Shown here: positions 3,574 to 14,609 of the stretch, piece by piece
How positions within the stretch are numbered: the first letter of the stretch is position 1
How the letters are laid out: each line of letters begins with the position of its first letter
Virus record (IMG/VR): IMGVR_UViG_3300019378_000009
Coordinates: 1 to 64,000 of that record
Direction: 5' to 3' (one strand)
From: a virus
Taxonomy: Duplodnaviria > Caudoviricetes
Length of the DNA stretch: 64,000 bases
Notes under the pieces: generated by a model
Told to the model about the DNA's origin: nothing
The model's input: only the letters and a program-made list of their open reading frames with translations
The model's database searches: none
Translations under genes and position numbers: made by a program

Positions 3574-3759
3574 TTACCCATAGGATGAGGGTAGTTAATA
3601 GTCCTACTGTTTCTTTGTTTTAGTGAAAAACATTGGCACGACAGTAAGTGAAGTTACTGTGATGTTCTTACCATCGGTTGTAAGACACGGTTTCCGTATT
3701 TATCGTGGCGTTGACTTGGGTCCGCAAGCCTGACTAGCAAAATACGGTTATAAGAAAAT

Positions 3760-3788
3760 TTGATTTTTTGTCTAATTTGCGTTATAAT
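3760..3788 (+). promoter_or_regulatory. sigmaA-type promoter
   Basis: TTGATT-17-TATAAT. Confidence 0.7.
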
Positions 3789-3814
3789 AATTATACAAAA
3801 GAAAAAAGTTAAAT

Positions 3815-8091: not shown

Positions 8092-8730
8092 ATGGCATAC
8101 ATTTATAAAATTACCAATCAAATTAATCAAAAATGTTATATCGGTAAAACACTAAGAACCATAGAAGTTCGTTGGAGAGAACATCGAAAAGATTATCAAA
8201 AACCAGAAAAAAGTCATCAACCGTTATACAGAGCAATGAATAAGTATGGATTTGATAATTTTGCAATTAGTATCGTCGAAGAATGTGACGACACAATTGT
8301 AGAAGAAAGAGAACGATATTGGATTGAATATTATCAATCTTTTAAAAATGGTTATAATGCTACATTGGGTGGGGACGGAAAGCCGTATATTGATTATGAT
8401 AAAGTTTGCGCTTTATATGAAATATATAAGAACCAAAACGAAGTAGCTAGGCAAATGAATATTAACAAAACTACTGTGCATTATATACTACGGCAACGGA
8501 ACATAGATATGATTCCCTCTTCTTTAGTCACGCCGATGACTACAGGTAAAGTAGTACATCAATATTCATTAAATAATGATTATATCAATACTTTTATGTC
8601 TTTAAGCGAGGCAGCTCGTTATTTAAAAGATGAGTATAATATTACTGCAAATATATCTTCTATTGTATGTAATATTGGTCGTTGTCTTTCTGGCAAAAGA
8701 AAAACTGCTTATAAATTTATTTGGAAATAA
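8092..8730 (+). CDS. GIY-YIG homing endonuclease with NUMOD1-like C-terminus
   Basis: YIYKITN..YIGKT; VHQYSLNNDYINTFMSLSEAA...TAYKFIW. Confidence 0.9.
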   Translation: MAYIYKITNQINQKCYIGKTLRTIEVRWREHRKDYQKPEKSHQPLYRAMNKYGFDNFAISIVEECDDTIVEERERYWIEYYQSFKNGYNATLGGDGKPYIDYDKVCALYEIYKNQNEVARQMNINKTTVHYILRQRNIDMIPSSLVTPMTTGKVVHQYSLNNDYINTFMSLSEAARYLKDEYNITANISSIVCNIGRCLSGKRKTAYKFIWK

Positions 8731-8742
8731 TTTTTTGTTTGT

Positions 8743-8810
8743 TGGTAGCAAAGAAAAACCAACGCCGCAGAAATGCGTATTTTGTGTTTACTGGTAGCAA
8801 AGAAAAACCA
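8743..8810 (+). repeat. 19-bp direct repeat TGGTAGCAAAGAAAAACCA x2
   Basis: copies at 8743-8761 and 8792-8810. Confidence 0.85.
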
Positions 8811-8843
8811 GAAAAAAGTAGGGAGAAAATGAAAGGTTACGGA

Positions 8844-9068
8844 ATGAAATTTAGAGCAAAAGTGCGCCTAGATACTCAAACAGAAATTGCAAACTTTGTA
8901 AATCGTGTTAGTTCTGTTTCTGTACCTGTATTCCTAACAAGTGGCGCCCTATGTGTAAGCGGAAAAAGTTTACTGGGCGCCATTTATACTATGGAATGGG
9001 ATGACCTATGGTGTGAATGTGAAGAAAACATTTATCACTTAATTGAGGACTTTATTATTGTGGATTAG
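8844..9068 (+). CDS. HPr-family protein lacking the His15 motif
   Basis: VSGKSLLG matches HPr Ser46 motif (xAKSIMG); start could be 8829. Confidence 0.7.
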   Translation: MKFRAKVRLDTQTEIANFVNRVSSVSVPVFLTSGALCVSGKSLLGAIYTMEWDDLWCECEENIYHLIEDFIIVD

Positions 9069-9083
9069 TCCGCCACGCAATAT

Positions 9084-9171
9084 GGGAGAGTAGCAAATCG
9101 GCAACTGCACTGGTCTGTAAAACCGGCACTCGTATCGAGTACAATGGGGTCGGCACCCATCTCTCCCACCA
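9084..9171 (+). tRNA. tRNA-Tyr(GTA)
   Basis: variable arm, CT-GTA-AA loop, T-loop GTCGGCA, ACCA. Confidence 0.88.
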
Positions 9172-9179
9172 AATTATAT

Positions 9180-9255
9180 GCCTGTGTAGCTTAGATGGTT
9201 AGAGCGCTGGTTTGAAGCACCAGAGAGGAAGATTCGATCGCTTCCGCAGGCACCA
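9180..9255 (+). tRNA. tRNA-Phe(GAA)
   Basis: CTGGT-TTGAAGC-ACCAG, ACCA. Confidence 0.88.
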
Positions 9256-9263
9256 AAAATGAT

Positions 9264-10025
9264 ATGAGGGACAATATGACAGGAATTTATAAATACACCA
9301 ATTTAATAAACGGTAGCTGTTATATAGGACAAGCTGTTGACTTAGTGCGCAGACACAAAGATCATAAAGTTCGTTATTGTTCACCAACATCAGAAGAATA
9401 CAATAGCGTAATACATCAAGCTTTTCGTAAGTATGGTATAGAAAATTTTACTTATGAAATCCTTGAAGAGTGTGATGTTGAGCAATTAAATGATCGAGAA
9501 ATTTATTGGATTGCTTTTTATGATAGTTACAATAGCGGCTATAATTGTGGACCAGGTGGTTCTGAAAAACATTTCTGTAAGTTTAATGCAGATATATTAG
9601 CAAGCATTACAAATGATTTGCAAAATACTGATATGACATATCAAGACATTGCTAATAAAAATGGTTGTTCTGTGGGCTTTGTTGGTGATTTTAATGCAGG
9701 AAAGTTATGGAAACAAGATGGAGTGCAGTATCCACTTAGACAACATAAGAGAAATCAAAGATTTTGCACTGTATGCAATACACCAATTAGCAAAGATGGT
9801 GTTACTGGAATGTGTTCCAAATGTTATGCCAAGTCTATTCGTACAGTTGAAAGACCGAGTGCGGAACAGTTGTTAGAAGAAGTAGCGACCTCTTCTTTCG
9901 CTGCTGTGGGGCGTAAATATAATTTAACAGATAATGCAATACGCAAATGGTGTAAAGCATATGGTTTACCCACGCATTCAAAAGAAATAAAAGATTTATA
10001 TAATCGTACGTTTTTAAGCACTTAA
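9264..10025 (+). CDS. GIY-YIG homing endonuclease, paralog of 2061-2834
   Basis: GIYKYTN..YIGQA, CxxC pairs, VGRKYNLTDNAIRKWCKAY. Confidence 0.9.
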   Translation: MRDNMTGIYKYTNLINGSCYIGQAVDLVRRHKDHKVRYCSPTSEEYNSVIHQAFRKYGIENFTYEILEECDVEQLNDREIYWIAFYDSYNSGYNCGPGGSEKHFCKFNADILASITNDLQNTDMTYQDIANKNGCSVGFVGDFNAGKLWKQDGVQYPLRQHKRNQRFCTVCNTPISKDGVTGMCSKCYAKSIRTVERPSAEQLLEEVATSSFAAVGRKYNLTDNAIRKWCKAYGLPTHSKEIKDLYNRTFLST

Positions 10026-10275: not shown

Positions 10276-11040
10276 ATGACAACTAAATATTTTGTAGTAA
10301 GTGATGTTCATGGCTTTTACTCCTTACTTATGAAAGCACTCAAGCAGCAAGGATTTGAAATAAACAATCCTTCTCATCACCTTATCATTTGCGGCGATGC
10401 TTTTGACCGCGGCAAGGAAGCAAAACAATTACAAGATTTTCTTGTGTCTATGCAAGAACAAAATCGTTTGATATATATTTGCGGCAACCACGAAGATTTA
10501 ATGCTTGAAATGATAAGAGATTTGCCGCAGATTTGCGACCATATAGAGTGGACGCATCACGCAAGCAATGGTACTGTTTCTACTCTGTTGCAGCTTACAG
10601 GAATGACACTCTCACAAGTTAAGCGTGATCCATATCGTGCAATAGAGTATTTTACTCACACTCCATTTTATAAGCAACTGTTGCCAGAAATAGTAGATTA
10701 TGTGGAAATTGGTGACTGCGTGTTTGTACATGGTTGGATACCTTGTTTTTCTCATTTGCATAATTGGCGCGAAGCCTCTAATAGCGAATGGAGAGAAGCA
10801 AGATGGTGGAATGGTATGGAATTGTGGCGCAATAAAGCATGCCGCGAATCCGGAAAAACCATTGTTTGTGGACATTGGAACTGTAGCTGGGGCTGGGCAC
10901 AAGAGGATTGCGAAACATATACGGAATGGGGACAGAGTGCAAACTTCGAACCCTATGATCGTGAAGGTATTCTCGCTATTGACGGATGCGTTGCATACAG
11001 CGGAATTATGAATTGCGTAGTATTGGAAGTTGACAATTAG
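10276..11040 (+). CDS. calcineurin-like metallophosphoesterase
   Basis: DVHG, GDAFDRG, GNHE, VHG, GHW motifs. Confidence 0.9.
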   Translation: MTTKYFVVSDVHGFYSLLMKALKQQGFEINNPSHHLIICGDAFDRGKEAKQLQDFLVSMQEQNRLIYICGNHEDLMLEMIRDLPQICDHIEWTHHASNGTVSTLLQLTGMTLSQVKRDPYRAIEYFTHTPFYKQLLPEIVDYVEIGDCVFVHGWIPCFSHLHNWREASNSEWREARWWNGMELWRNKACRESGKTIVCGHWNCSWGWAQEDCETYTEWGQSANFEPYDREGILAIDGCVAYSGIMNCVVLEVDN

Positions 11041-11091: not shown

Positions 11092-11715
11092 ATGATAAAC
11101 ACTACGCGTTTACGCTTAATCATTGGATGGTTAGCTATTTCATTATCGCTAATTGTACTTATATTATCTTTAAGTTTTGGTTTTGGTTTTCCAGACTCAA
11201 TTTCTGCAACTTATTATTTTGATACTTGTATTACGCCTTTTATGATTATTTTGGGTTCCGCAAGCATTTTATTATTTAGTTATCGTGGTTATGACAAGCA
11301 AGATGATATAATATGCACTATAGCGGGTATTTTGGGATTGTGTATTTGTCTTTTTCCTTGCATGACAACGCCAGTACCAATGGCTTTTGTTGGTACTTTC
11401 CATTTGCCTGTAATATTAAGTGGTATAATTCACAATATAACAGCTGCGGGATTTTTTGCATTGTTGGCATATAATTCATTATTTTTGTTCACCAAAAGTG
11501 GCGAAATTATGACCGATAAAAAGAAAAAGCGTAATTTAGTTTTTCGCATCTGCGGTATTGGTATGTTAGTAGCATTTGCGCTAATTATTCCGGTCGCGAT
11601 TTTTCAAATACATGGTTTAACTTGGGTGCTTGAATTTATTGCGTTAAGCTTTTTTGGAATATCTTGGTTAACAAAAGCCAATTATTATTCTTGGCTTTTC
11701 GCAGAAAAAGACTAA
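11092..11715 (+). CDS. multi-pass membrane protein (DUF998-like)
   Basis: about 6 hydrophobic segments, SISxxY and H..A motifs. Confidence 0.75.
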   Translation: MINTTRLRLIIGWLAISLSLIVLILSLSFGFGFPDSISATYYFDTCITPFMIILGSASILLFSYRGYDKQDDIICTIAGILGLCICLFPCMTTPVPMAFVGTFHLPVILSGIIHNITAAGFFALLAYNSLFLFTKSGEIMTDKKKKRNLVFRICGIGMLVAFALIIPVAIFQIHGLTWVLEFIALSFFGISWLTKANYYSWLFAEKD

Positions 11716-11723
11716 ATTAAAAT

Positions 11724-11752
11724 TTGATTTTTAACAAAATTTATGCTATAAT
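11724..11752 (+). promoter_or_regulatory. sigmaA-type promoter of the giant-RNA transcription unit
   Basis: TTGATT-17-TATAAT with TG. Confidence 0.8.
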
Positions 11753-11852
11753 ATTTATAGAAAGAACAAAGAAGTCTGGAATTTTTATCGCGCTGATGTT
11801 AGTCAGACTTAAAAGAGGAAACGCGCGCTCAATCTTTGTTCTTTTGTTTAAT

Positions 11853-11926
11853 GGGTTGCTAGTTTAACGGTAAAACGGCAGATTGTGGCTCTGCTCTTAG
11901 TAGTTCAATTCTACTGCTTCCCTCCA
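11853..11926 (+). tRNA. tRNA-His(GTG), atypical acceptor
   Basis: GCAGA-TTGTGGC-TCTGC; two U:U acceptor mismatches, no encoded G-1/C73. Confidence 0.78.
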
Positions 11927-11997
11927 AGTTCCCATCCAGATGACCCTGAGATGTCTATATGGGCATACTATAGACAGAGAGATGGGAACTATTATTT

Positions 11998-12072
11998 GCA
12001 GGTATAGTATAATGGTTATTATGAGTCCTTGCCAAGGATTAGATGTGGGTTCAATTCCCATTACTTGCTCCA
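11998..12072 (+). tRNA. tRNA-Gly(GCC)
   Basis: AGTCC-TTGCCAA-GGATT, U73, CCA. Confidence 0.9.
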
Positions 12073-12260
12073 GGCTGACGAGGTAGATTGGCAATCTACG
12101 AGGTCTGAGCCGTTGTATCACAACTTGCCCAGTGTTGGCGGACTAGTAGGTATACGCAGCATAAATCATAGACCAAGTGGGATGTTCCCCAAAACTCTAT
12201 GGGGTCTATGTACCTGTCCATAATGAATACCCGAACCAAAAGGCAGAAAACCTCTGCAAC
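12073..12260 (+). ncRNA. unidentified structured RNA D (~190 nt)
   Basis: stems GTAGATT/AATCTAC, CATAGACC/GGTCTATG; no ORF. Confidence 0.4.
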
Positions 12261-13458
12261 TTTTGCACTGTTGCCAATAGTACCAGTATGCACCAAAAGG
12301 TACTAACACACATTTGAGTTAGCAAATAAGATTGTGTTGTCTAACGCGGCAGGTGTCGTCTCCCATACGATAATGGGATGCCAAATGCAGAGGCTGGCAA
12401 CCTGCCGTTTCGCTTGACGATATAAGCTACGGAAAGATTCGGTAGAAATATCGAACTGCACGTTGGTGCTACGAAGATCCCTTAAGCCGTTAGCCGTAAA
12501 GTAGTGGAGCTTATGCTGAGAAGTTATTTTACGTGAATCGGGGTGCTTGCAGGTTCTGTAATTCGTTTGTTAATCGTGAGAACTGTTGGGGCGGGGTTGT
12601 GCCGAGAGCTGTAGTAAATGGAGTTAGAAGAACAGCCAACGAGTTAAATATTTGGTGCCACGAAGCGCCGCCTACACTGAGTATTAAGACTCGACGTAAA
12701 AGGGAATGGTGAAGCAGAAGCAGTGGTAAATGGAATGTGATAAACAGCCAATGAATCAAAAAAATTGTATAGGTATCAGGTAAGATTAAGATAGCTCTGT
12801 AGTGACAAAGAGAACGCTAGAAATAGAGATGAGGTTGCAAACCCTCTGGAGCATACGCCTATACTACAGAACAGAAAACTGTACAAACAATGTCCGTGGA
12901 CTGAAACGGCCACAGGCGAGGATAGGGAAAATATCGCCGTAAATATTTGGTGCCTACTCGGGGAATACAGGTGGTAGGATAAATGAGACGACCCAGCCAG
13001 CCAAATATAGCAAACAATTAAGGTAGTGGACGGACGGGACGACGGTGAAATGACGTTGTGTTGATTGTTTGCGAAAAACTTGGGAGTCGGTGGAACAGAT
13101 CGCCCCGACAGAGCATCCACAGCATCGTTAAGCATTTACCTCTACTGTGCTATTGAAAATCTACGATCCAGCGAGCCGGCCGCTATTGTCGGTAAAACCC
13201 CGATATCGTAGAGTTGGGTACCGCAAGAAGGTGGATAAAAGCGGGATAAAAATGTTATCACCAAACCTCGAAAATAGCAGGCAGTTGAAATACAATGCAC
13301 CATTTCGAGTGAGTCCAAAGGCCGTGCCTATACGACCGCGGTTGAACCTCAAGGCCACGCGAGTGGTACAAGGTAAAAGTAGGCTGAAATACCGCTGGCA
13401 AAATTGCAAATCGGATACGCAGATATGGGCTAAGTAAACGCATATCTCAAGTGCACAA
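12261..13458 (+). ncRNA. ROOL-like giant RNA, expanded (~1200 nt)
   Basis: terminal pairing TGCACT/AGTGCA; 5' CACCAAAAGG..AGCAAATAAG and 3' CAATGCA..GTCCAAAG..AAGT.GGCTGAAA..TCTCA motifs resemble ROOL as recalled. Confidence 0.6.
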
Positions 13459-13459
13459 C

Positions 13460-14197
13460 GAAGAGGAGCCGAGGATTTAGGAAACGTAGGACAACGGAGT
13501 GTAGATAGCTCGTCGCAAGAAATTTGAGGAGTTGACCGTCTTTCTTCACGGGCGGATGCCAAAGGTCATTGCTCACCCATCCTTGTGTTATTCATCGTGA
13601 GAACGAGCGTGTAATACAGAACAATGTTGAGTTGTTCAAGTGTGGGAAGAGTTGAGGTTTCGCTCAAGGAAGAACCTCTGGGCGTTTCCGAATATTGTAA
13701 TGGGTGCGACGGCACTCGTAACATATTGTTAAACAAACTATCGAAAAGTAGTAGGTCCCCTCGACGGCTGTTGCCGGGCACGGATTGGACTGAGGGATAA
13801 GTGGGAAGGTAGTGAACTGCCTACGGTGGAAGCAAGAACGTGTTGTGGATGCTTAGATAGTGATAGGGGCTGGCATACGTGCCCTGGTCCCACCTTACAC
13901 GAGTTGAACTCGTGATAGACGCTTTAACTGGGCGTCGCGGCGGTCCCTACGCAGAAATAGGGGCTACACTTCGAGTGTGGCAAAATGTTTTACTTCGCCT
14001 TTAGAGGTGCGCTCGCAGGACGAGCCAACCAATCCACGGGTTGTAAAATAAACACGAAAAGCGCGTCTTAGACAAAAGGCGGTTCTATCATATGCTAGTG
14101 ATATGATATTTGGGAGGGAATGTTAGGTGGCGTCCCAAAGTGTAATAGGTGGCGATAACCGCAGTGAAGCAACCCAATGCGTGAAGAGGTTGTGGCA
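13460..14197 (+). ncRNA. unidentified large structured RNA E (~740 nt)
   Basis: at least 15 hairpins plus long-range GGAAACG/CGTTTCC; ORF-free. Confidence 0.55.
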
Positions 14198-14206
14198 TTA
14201 TATAAT

Positions 14207-14281
14207 AGGCAGGATTTGCCCGAAGTGGTAATTCTGGAAGACACTTACGGTGATGTGGGTTCGATTCCCGCCGGACAGCCT
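14207..14281 (+). ncRNA. tRNA-like element without a normal anticodon arm
   Basis: TTGCCCG/CGGACAG acceptor-like stem, perfect T arm GTGGG-TTCGATT-CCCGC, no CCA. Confidence 0.5.
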
Positions 14282-14315
14282 GTGATAGTTATATAGTGAA
14301 ACCGTAAATAAATAT

Positions 14316-14389
14316 ACAGAATGTGATGTAACAGTAACATACGAGTTTTGGGAACTTGAGTAGCGGGGCGGCACCGACATTCTGTACCA
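14316..14389 (+). tRNA. tRNA-Pro(TGG), variant T arm
   Basis: CGAGT-TTTGGGA-ACTTG, ACAGAATG/CATTCTGT, ACCA. Confidence 0.78.
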
Positions 14390-14416
14390 GTATTAAATAA
14401 GTCAGGAGATGCTATT

Positions 14417-14539
14417 ATGTATACCAAAGAACTTCGTAAGCTCATTATTGAAAATCGTCTTGCAAGATTGGCTACCAATGGTAAAGACAATTGGCCGATA
14501 CGCAAGAAGCTCGAAAGAGAATTGAAGAAATATTCCTAA
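14417..14539 (+). CDS. 40-aa basic protein (below ORF-track cutoff)
   Basis: AGGAGA SD, MYTKELRKLIIENRLARL... Confidence 0.6.
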   Translation: MYTKELRKLIIENRLARLATNGKDNWPIRKKLERELKKYS

Positions 14540-14544
14540 ATTAG

Positions 14545-14572
14545 TCCCGAATTTATTCGGGATTTTCTTTTT
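14545..14572 (+). terminator. intrinsic terminator ending the RNA island
   Basis: TCCCGAA/TTCGGGA hairpin plus U tract. Confidence 0.75.
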
Positions 14573-14580
14573 GAAAAAAT

Positions 14581-14609
14581 TTGATTTTTTTTAAATTTTA
14601 TGGTATAAT
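14581..14609 (+). promoter_or_regulatory. sigmaA-type promoter
   Basis: TTGATT-17-TATAAT with TG. Confidence 0.75.

Follow-up and report, generated by a model that had tools for sequence, protein, structure and literature searches.

The DNA analysed here, referred to below as the window, comprises bases 1-64000 of a complete phage genome of 109,428 bp (~109 kb) with direct terminal repeats. Its first 14.5 kb is a tRNA island containing 23-24 conventional tRNA genes and several ORF-free blocks; three genes for GIY-YIG homing endonucleases and one for a calcineurin-like metallophosphoesterase lie among the tRNA genes (2061-2834, 8092-8730, 9264-10025, and 10276-11040). The largest ORF-free block of the island, 12073-14400, houses the 738-nt stretch under study (13460-14197), which is located at the 3' end of an ORF-free tract proper of ~2.1 kb (12073-14195). 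In an initial annotation, the stretch had been described as a second giant RNA that starts at 13460, directly after a ROOL-like RNA, and that is either a partner or cargo of this cage-forming RNA or part of one ~2.1-kb RNA. The features of the region are as follows.

11724-11752, + strand: extended -10 sigma-70-type promoter (TTGATT, 17-nt spacer with TG, TATAAT), which opens the transcription unit
11853-11926, + strand: tRNA-His, CCA encoded
11998-12072, + strand: tRNA-Gly, CCA encoded; together with tRNA-His (11853-12072) the 5' border of the ORF-free tract
12073-12995, + strand: 5' ORF-free segment with two module hairpins, the ROOL-like RNA of the initial annotation
12996-13874, + strand: predicted domain closed by long-range pairing, with 13460 in mid-domain
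13460-14197, + strand: stretch under study, i.e. the 3' half of the predicted closed domain followed by a 3' hairpin cluster
13565-13662, + strand: three-way-junction hairpin, whose outer stem and flanks match a hairpin of another phage (G001)
13895-13985, + strand: four tandem local hairpins (shuffle test, ensemble probabilities)
14060-14140, + strand: three more local hairpins (shuffle test)
14196-14298, + strand: tRNA-like element, two hairpins plus a canonical T arm inside an A/U-rich helix of 11 bp
14316-14389, + strand: odd tRNA-Pro(UGG)-like gene with a cloverleaf fold, an encoded ACCA end, and a non-canonical T arm
14417-14539, + strand: 40-aa ORF, no family match
14543-14564, + strand: intrinsic terminator, which closes the unit

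The promoter type of this phage is an extended -10 (TTGAYW-N14-TGN-TATAAT), found at 19 sites in the window, where chance would give 0.59 over both strands. All of these sites except one, which is on the - strand, lie on the + strand (18/19, including the one at 11724). The 18 + strand promoters span 73-47798 and divide the first 48 kb into transcription units. The next consensus promoter after that at 11724 is found at 14581, and none occurs within 11753-14580. The unit is thereby ordered as promoter, tRNA-His, tRNA-Gly, 2.1-kb tract, tRNA-like element, tRNA-Pro, 40-aa ORF, and terminator. Inside 12073-14195, neither a consensus promoter nor a tRNA was found, and the sole terminator-like site (13963-13981) has a poor tail. 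The statement of the initial annotation that no tRNA separates the stretch from its neighbour was confirmed, as Rfam, ARAGORN, and our own scan detected none in 12073-14197. The search for hidden tRNAs in 13460-14197 (ARAGORN at lowered thresholds plus a scan for acceptor, T arm, and CCA) returned only weak, implausible calls. Judged from these sequence signals only, 13460-14197 is predicted to be co-transcribed with the tRNAs as one unit.

The coding potential and composition of the tract were then considered. All six frames of 12073-14400 are closed, no single stop-codon reassignment opens any of them, and seven internal ORFs of the tract (the longest being 133, 119, 96, and 71 aa) had no match in Pfam or PHROGs. 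The GC content of 13460-14197 is 0.495 (49.5%; purines 0.57), compared with 0.516 for the tRNAs, 0.356 for twenty ORFs, and 0.359 for the whole window. The stretch is thus ~14 points above the genome and level with the tRNAs; the remaining ORF-free blocks of the island have a GC content of 0.46-0.49. In AT-rich genomes, ORF-free islands of high GC are an established mark of structural RNA genes. Unlike 13460-14197, the decayed remains of an endonuclease gene in a similar island of another phage (L041:3880-4960) are AT-rich. For this stretch, composition is a stronger signal than the number of hairpins.

No family had been recognised in the initial annotation, and the Rfam scans agree with this. 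When the window was searched by cmscan against all 4227 Rfam 15 families at the gathering score, tRNAs alone were returned; relaxing the threshold to E<=10 over 11700-14450 added noise and, at 14255-14271, a 17-nt fragment of the tmRNA T arm, with no family. The tmRNA match reached 13.1 bits against a gathering score of 47 and covered the T arm only, ARAGORN in tmRNA mode found none, and this candidate was rejected. Group I and group II introns were rejected as well, with no match of any Rfam intron model at E<=10 over 11700-14450. The stretch was therefore identified neither as a known RNA nor as an intron at this threshold. ROOL is a large ORF-free structured phage RNA often found beside tRNA islands (PMC5737381; 10.1101/2024.12.08.627333). 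The ROOL model RF03087 (574 positions, gathering score 99.1 bits) gave 0 matches at E<=10 in the whole 109-kb phage and also 0 in the control genomes, and the Rfam scan of 11700-14450 was equally silent. With 0 matches of RF03087 at this threshold, the ROOL label given to the upstream neighbour is unsupported. GOLLD, including its conserved 3' domain, gave no match either; it was covered through the scans of all 4227 Rfam families and not through its own accession. RF01998, at first taken for GOLLD, is group-II-D1D4-1 (a piece of a group II intron) in the Rfam 15 copy used and is absent from the phage. Residual likeness of the stretch to a tRNA, an intron, or a protein was not detected by Rfam, Pfam, PHROGs, or the tRNA scans.

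The hairpins on which the initial annotation was based were examined next. All cited motif pairs exist at the positions given for them: GAACAA 13619/TTGTTC 13632, GGGTGC 13702/GCACTC 13712, CACGAG 13898/CTCGTG 13909, GACGCT 13918/GGCGTC 13931, GCTACAC 13963/GTGTGGC 13975, TATCATAT 14086/ATATGATA 14101, TTTGGGA 14109/TCCCAAA 14133, and the long-range pair GGAAACG 13480/CGTTTCC 13683. In the initial annotation, at least 15 hairpins were counted; the minimum-energy fold of the 738 nt has 17 hairpin loops, and shuffled sequences have 13.5±2.3. Perfect Watson-Crick stems of at least 5 bp number 11, compared with 5.2±2.3 in shuffles, and 11 was reached by 5 of 300 shuffles. The number of hairpins in 13460-14197 is thus only modestly above chance. 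The folding z of the entire 738 nt was -2.49 on the + strand and -2.12 on the - strand. Local stability was found mainly toward the 3' end: the cluster at 13895-13985 had a z of -3.82 (0/200 shuffles as stable) and that at 14060-14140 a z of -2.33 (4/200 shuffles). Three of the four hairpins of 13895-13985 keep a probability (P) of 0.89-0.99 in the full-length ensemble, and the remaining one, GACGCT/GGCGTC, drops to 0.10. In 200-nt windows, there was little stability excess except at 13800-14199, in a test in which real tRNAs gave no signal. The segment 13895-14195 is accordingly modelled as a cluster of local hairpins, a predicted arrangement.

For the larger architecture, a partition-function fold of the whole inter-tRNA tract (12073-14315) was computed; all structural claims made here on the tract are of this nature, namely single-sequence thermodynamics. 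The ensemble has no domain boundary at 13459/13460. The 6-bp match TGCACT 12264/AGTGCA 13450, which lay behind the proposed start at 13460, has a pairing probability of 0 in the full-length ensemble. As for the long-range GGAAACG/CGTTTCC pair, the sequences are in place, but the ensemble probability is 0.17. Several predicted helices cross the proposed boundary. The closing helix, 12996-13002/13868-13874 (P 0.88), encloses a helix of 14 bp, two G-U pairs included, at 13111-13124/13841-13854 (P about 1), and further inside are the nested helices 13279-13286/13815-13822, 13312-13318/13785-13791, and 13322-13329/13776-13783 (the last with P about 1), the nested set spanning 13279-13345/13761-13822. 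A further predicted cross-boundary helix is 13403-13420/13682-13701, and the pair probabilities of the domain are 0.8-1.0.

The energetic coupling across the proposed start was assessed against shuffled sequences. Joining 13100-13459 to 13460-13870 yields -47.9 kcal/mol, compared with -14.1±5.5 in shuffles, of which 0/60 reach the observed value, and the folding z of 12990-13880 is -6.5 on the + strand and -1.64 on the - strand, the bounds of both tests having been picked after the fold was seen. An unbiased profile was computed over 42 cut points, each flanked by 420 nt on either side; the cuts at 13450-13650 gain 20-38.6 kcal/mol and the other 37 cuts gain 2-19 kcal/mol. A fixed-size sliding scan (891-nt windows, independent shuffles) gave z values of about -3.7 to -3.8 for the three windows covering 12990-14180 and of -1.7 to +1.2 for the six windows upstream, with no global stability excess in 12073-12995, where z lay between -0.7 and +1.2. 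When 50-nt segments were scanned pairwise for duplexes, an equal of the best long-range duplex turned up ~0.08 times per shuffled sequence, and the top pairs were not individually significant. The excess is seen in long windows and is absent in 200-nt windows, indicating that it arises from long-range pairs; its confinement to one strand suggests an RNA with G-U pairs and not a DNA palindrome. Collectively, the fold predicts a domain of ~880 nt (12996-13874) that spans the proposed start, in which the first ~415 nt of the stretch would pair with the preceding ~460 nt, and the last ~300 nt of the stretch are predicted to fold independently. A start at 13460 is not upheld by these results, given the zero probability of the boundary helix, the predicted helices across it, and the finding of no promoter, convincing terminator, or tRNA-type processing signal there.

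The upstream neighbour contains a 31-nt hairpin module, GTRGTAAATGGA-N8-AACAGCC, in two copies (12607-12637 and 12719-12749), both window copies thus being in the neighbour; zero copies occur within 13460-14197. The module was found in ~97 IMG/VR stretches, nearly all of them tRNA islands of 50-260-kb phages, with at most 4 copies per locus. It lies in ORF-free spans with a median of 440 nt, often 10-20 nt before a tRNA gene. Its base following GGA and its base preceding the last AAC change together (G with G, A with A). The module had no match in Rfam, and the RNAs that bear it have no common sequence outside the module. A second short motif, GGTGCYACGAAG, is present in the window at 12463-12476 and 12652-12665 and lies ~60-140 nt before the module in several phages. 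Elsewhere it occurs at L041:3040 and 3478, L173:~305, and L204:~150, and the L173 copy begins ~10 nt past the CCA of a tRNA. In the tRNA island of yet another phage, a RAGATH-33 RNA was detected (RF03102, L174:7215-7340; 123.6 bits, just over the gathering score).

At the other end of the tract, the T arm of the tRNA-like element (14255-14271) reads GTGGG-TTCGATT-CCCGC, and 18 nt are 94% identical to the T arm of tRNA-Gly. A CCA end is not evident in 14196-14298, an anticodon loop is not recognisable, and ARAGORN makes no call. The element is likely the 3' border of the large RNA. Neither ARAGORN nor, at E<=10, the Rfam tRNA model picked up the tRNA-Pro-like gene that follows (14316-14389). 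Relatives of this gene were found at L167:8290-8366 (79% identity) and L173:885-956 (75%), with a further copy at L041:~3700-3790; in the large phages L173 and L041, the gene comes right after a module-bearing RNA.

Homologues of the stretch itself were sought in several collections. Blastn gave no nucleotide match in the INPHARED phages, and in 96 whole large-phage records it gave T-arm or chance matches (one of them in a coding region), one hairpin excepted. FolD, which is encoded 750 nt downstream, was used as an anchor for synteny. Its relatives at 73-86% identity are on 105-125-kb ENA/Logan contigs; the best relative was 54% identical in IMG/VR, 55% in GTDB genomes, and <60% in cultured phages, and a FolD-anchored scan of JGI/ENA metagenomes gave one 1.4-kb contig without useful flanks. 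A 122-kb phage with direct terminal repeats (L004; FolD 49% identical) is a distant syntenic relative. At L004:7188-8231, 8360-8446, and 8602-9827, this phage carries an ORF-free block of 1.05 kb flanked by tRNA-Met and tRNA-Ser, one tRNA called by ARAGORN with a 4-base 'ctaa' anticodon, and a gene for an RtcB-like RNA ligase, recognised by eye from its conserved motifs and located between FolD and the tRNA array.

The only homology found for the stretch was a hairpin of 45 nt, 96% identical, in IMGVR_UViG_3300012979_001162 (G001), an unrelated 163-kb phage. The counterpart in G001 matches 13565-13588 and 13640-13662 and sits in a tRNA-flanked, ORF-free RNA of ~1.15 kb. The hairpin of G001 is simple; in the window copy, 52 nt that form two further hairpins are inserted exactly at the loop, with the stem and flanks kept, a pattern that is typical of homologous structured RNAs. 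A single RNA of G001 carries the hairpin and, downstream of it, the module; the window has the hairpin ~1 kb downstream of its modules. This arrangement indicates that elements of the neighbour and of the stretch can share one RNA and that the conserved units are small and able to be rearranged. An exact-pattern scan of IMG/VR with a 16-mer of the shared hairpin gave G001 and chance matches only, a 22-mer gave 0 matches in GTDB genomes, and two other 19-mers gave nothing or a chance match in a phage gene of high GC. The hairpins of the window and of G001 were misaligned by MAFFT. A covariance model of the shared hairpin found no more copies, and it also missed the insertion-bearing copy of the window itself. 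On these searches, the stretch appears to be without detectable relatives in the accessible collections, bar the 45-nt hairpin in G001.

Taken together, these results partly confirm the observation of the initial annotation and partly support its interpretation. The stretch is a plausible candidate for a new structured RNA, thinly supported and with boundaries other than those first given. We put the probability at roughly 0.5 that 13460-14197 is the 3' third of a 2.1-kb untranslated part of a tRNA operon (12073-14195) that has been selected for its structure, and that it is not a gene of its own. The suggestion in the initial annotation that the stretch is part of one ~2.1-kb RNA fits the single unit, in which no internal promoter of the consensus type, convincing terminator, or tRNA was found, and the predicted helices that bridge 13459/13460. 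The one conserved hairpin stands in a different module order in G001, which is more in keeping with a series of small modules than with a single large architecture. According to the sequence signals, transcription of the operon would run from the promoter at 11724 to 14564, the end of the terminator. Cleavage sites could be supplied 5' of the tract by tRNA-Gly and 3' of it by the tRNA-like element and tRNA-Pro, and host RNase P and 3' trimming enzymes would free the intervening RNA there. The precedent for this proposed step is the stable RNAs encoded in the tRNA cluster of phage T4 (species 1 and 2), which are non-tRNA species of about 140 nt that are co-transcribed with the tRNAs and released by the tRNA-processing machinery. 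The tract resembles these in its apparent co-transcription with phage tRNAs and differs in being ~15 times longer and in its predicted long-range architecture.

As a best guess, the freed RNA would be a stable, trans-acting structural RNA of the tRNA-supply programme of the phage, acting perhaps as a scaffold or as a decoy for tRNA-binding or tRNA-cutting factors of the host. Its mode of action would then resemble that of the GOLLD- and ROOL-type phage RNAs, although it belongs to neither family. The guess of a scaffold or decoy role was suggested by the full tRNA set, the odd tRNAs, the tRNA mimic, and the RtcB-like ligase beside the array of the distant relative; we regard this specific role as speculative and, at best, unlikely.

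The main rival to a structure-selected part of the operon is an array of small, independently folding modules strung along a tRNA precursor and possibly cut into many small RNAs. It is a live but minority prospect in our judgement. Conservation across phages is limited to short pieces (the 31-nt module in 97 stretches and the 45-nt hairpin in G001), the order of the pieces differs between the window and G001, the 31-nt module often stands 10-20 nt ahead of a tRNA gene, and the clusters 13895-13985 and 14060-14140 are each significant individually. Such an array does not readily account for the stability excess of 12990-13880, which appears in long windows only (z of -3.7 to -6.5) and not at 200 nt, or for the peak of the coupling energy exactly across 13450-13650, and the stretch itself has no copy of the widespread module.

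A more far-reaching reading, that 12073-14195 is one processed RNA of ~2.1 kb with a true long-range architecture, represents a new family, and might self-assemble like GOLLD and ROOL, is one that we regard as unlikely.

A non-functional spacer, made of decayed tRNA genes, introns, or acquired DNA and free of ORFs by chance, is distinctly improbable. The empty homologue searches and hairpin counts that exceed chance only modestly would suit it, and phage tRNA regions are rich in homing endonucleases and decayed genes, as exemplified by L041:3880-4960. Decay in this genome should, however, shift the composition toward AT, as in that L041 gene, and the GC content of the stretch is tRNA-like. A folding excess on the + strand only, a 96%-identical hairpin in an unrelated phage, and searches that found no trace of tRNA, intron, or protein in the stretch argue against a spacer as well.

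Less probable still, and very much so, is the separate second large RNA from 13460 that was initially proposed to partner a ROOL-like cage RNA or to be its cargo. The stretch does adjoin another ORF-free block with no tRNA in between, and ROOL and GOLLD are known near phage tRNA islands (10.1101/2024.12.08.627333; PMC5737381). The partner or cargo reading depends on a ROOL-like neighbour, and this premise failed in the RF03087 and Rfam scans; the boundary helix with a probability of 0, the predicted pairing across 13460, and the finding of no promoter, convincing terminator, or tRNA-type processing signal at this position also speak against it. A long cis-acting leader that controls how the tRNA-like element, tRNA-Pro, and the 40-aa ORF are processed or expressed, to which we give hardly any credence, would agree with the position of the stretch directly upstream of these features in the same transcription unit, but 2.1 kb far exceeds any known leader, and elsewhere the same odd tRNA-Pro follows very different RNAs of 390-590 nt.

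A structure-selected part of the tRNA operon, the reading that we prefer, has counterparts of several kinds. Like ROOL (RF03087), the tract is an ORF-free phage sequence near tRNA genes; unlike ROOL, which averages about 580 nt, it is 2.1 kb long, and the ROOL model does not match it. GOLLD is likewise an RNA of phages and prophages located by tRNA islands, sometimes with tRNAs in its linker, and has a conserved and a variable part, but the tract gives no match in the scan of all Rfam families. The module-hairpin RNAs share the tRNA-island niche and the pattern of short, highly conserved hairpins amid unconserved RNA, and the upstream neighbour has two of the modules, whereas 13460-14197 lacks GTRGTAAATGGA-N8-AACAGCC. 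Large structured RNAs of phage tRNA islands are a known kind of element, and, as judged by sequence comparison, the present sequence appears to be in no described family.

GOLLD and ROOL, which occur beside phage tRNA genes, have recently been shown to form RNA-only cages, and ~4 kb of the tRNA island of this phage is sequence of such a kind, none of it in a known family. If 12073-14195 is truly one RNA of ~2.1 kb, it would exceed the length of GOLLD, which at about 800 nt is the largest phage non-coding RNA that we found described. If the long-range domain is real, it would represent a new and much larger architecture for the GOLLD/ROOL class. The locus would in that case be a tractable one for the role of such RNAs, with a complete genome, a defined promoter and terminator, and ends set by tRNAs. 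If the tract is a string of modules instead, it would be more evidence that the tRNA operons of phages hold many small RNA elements that have not yet been filed in any family.
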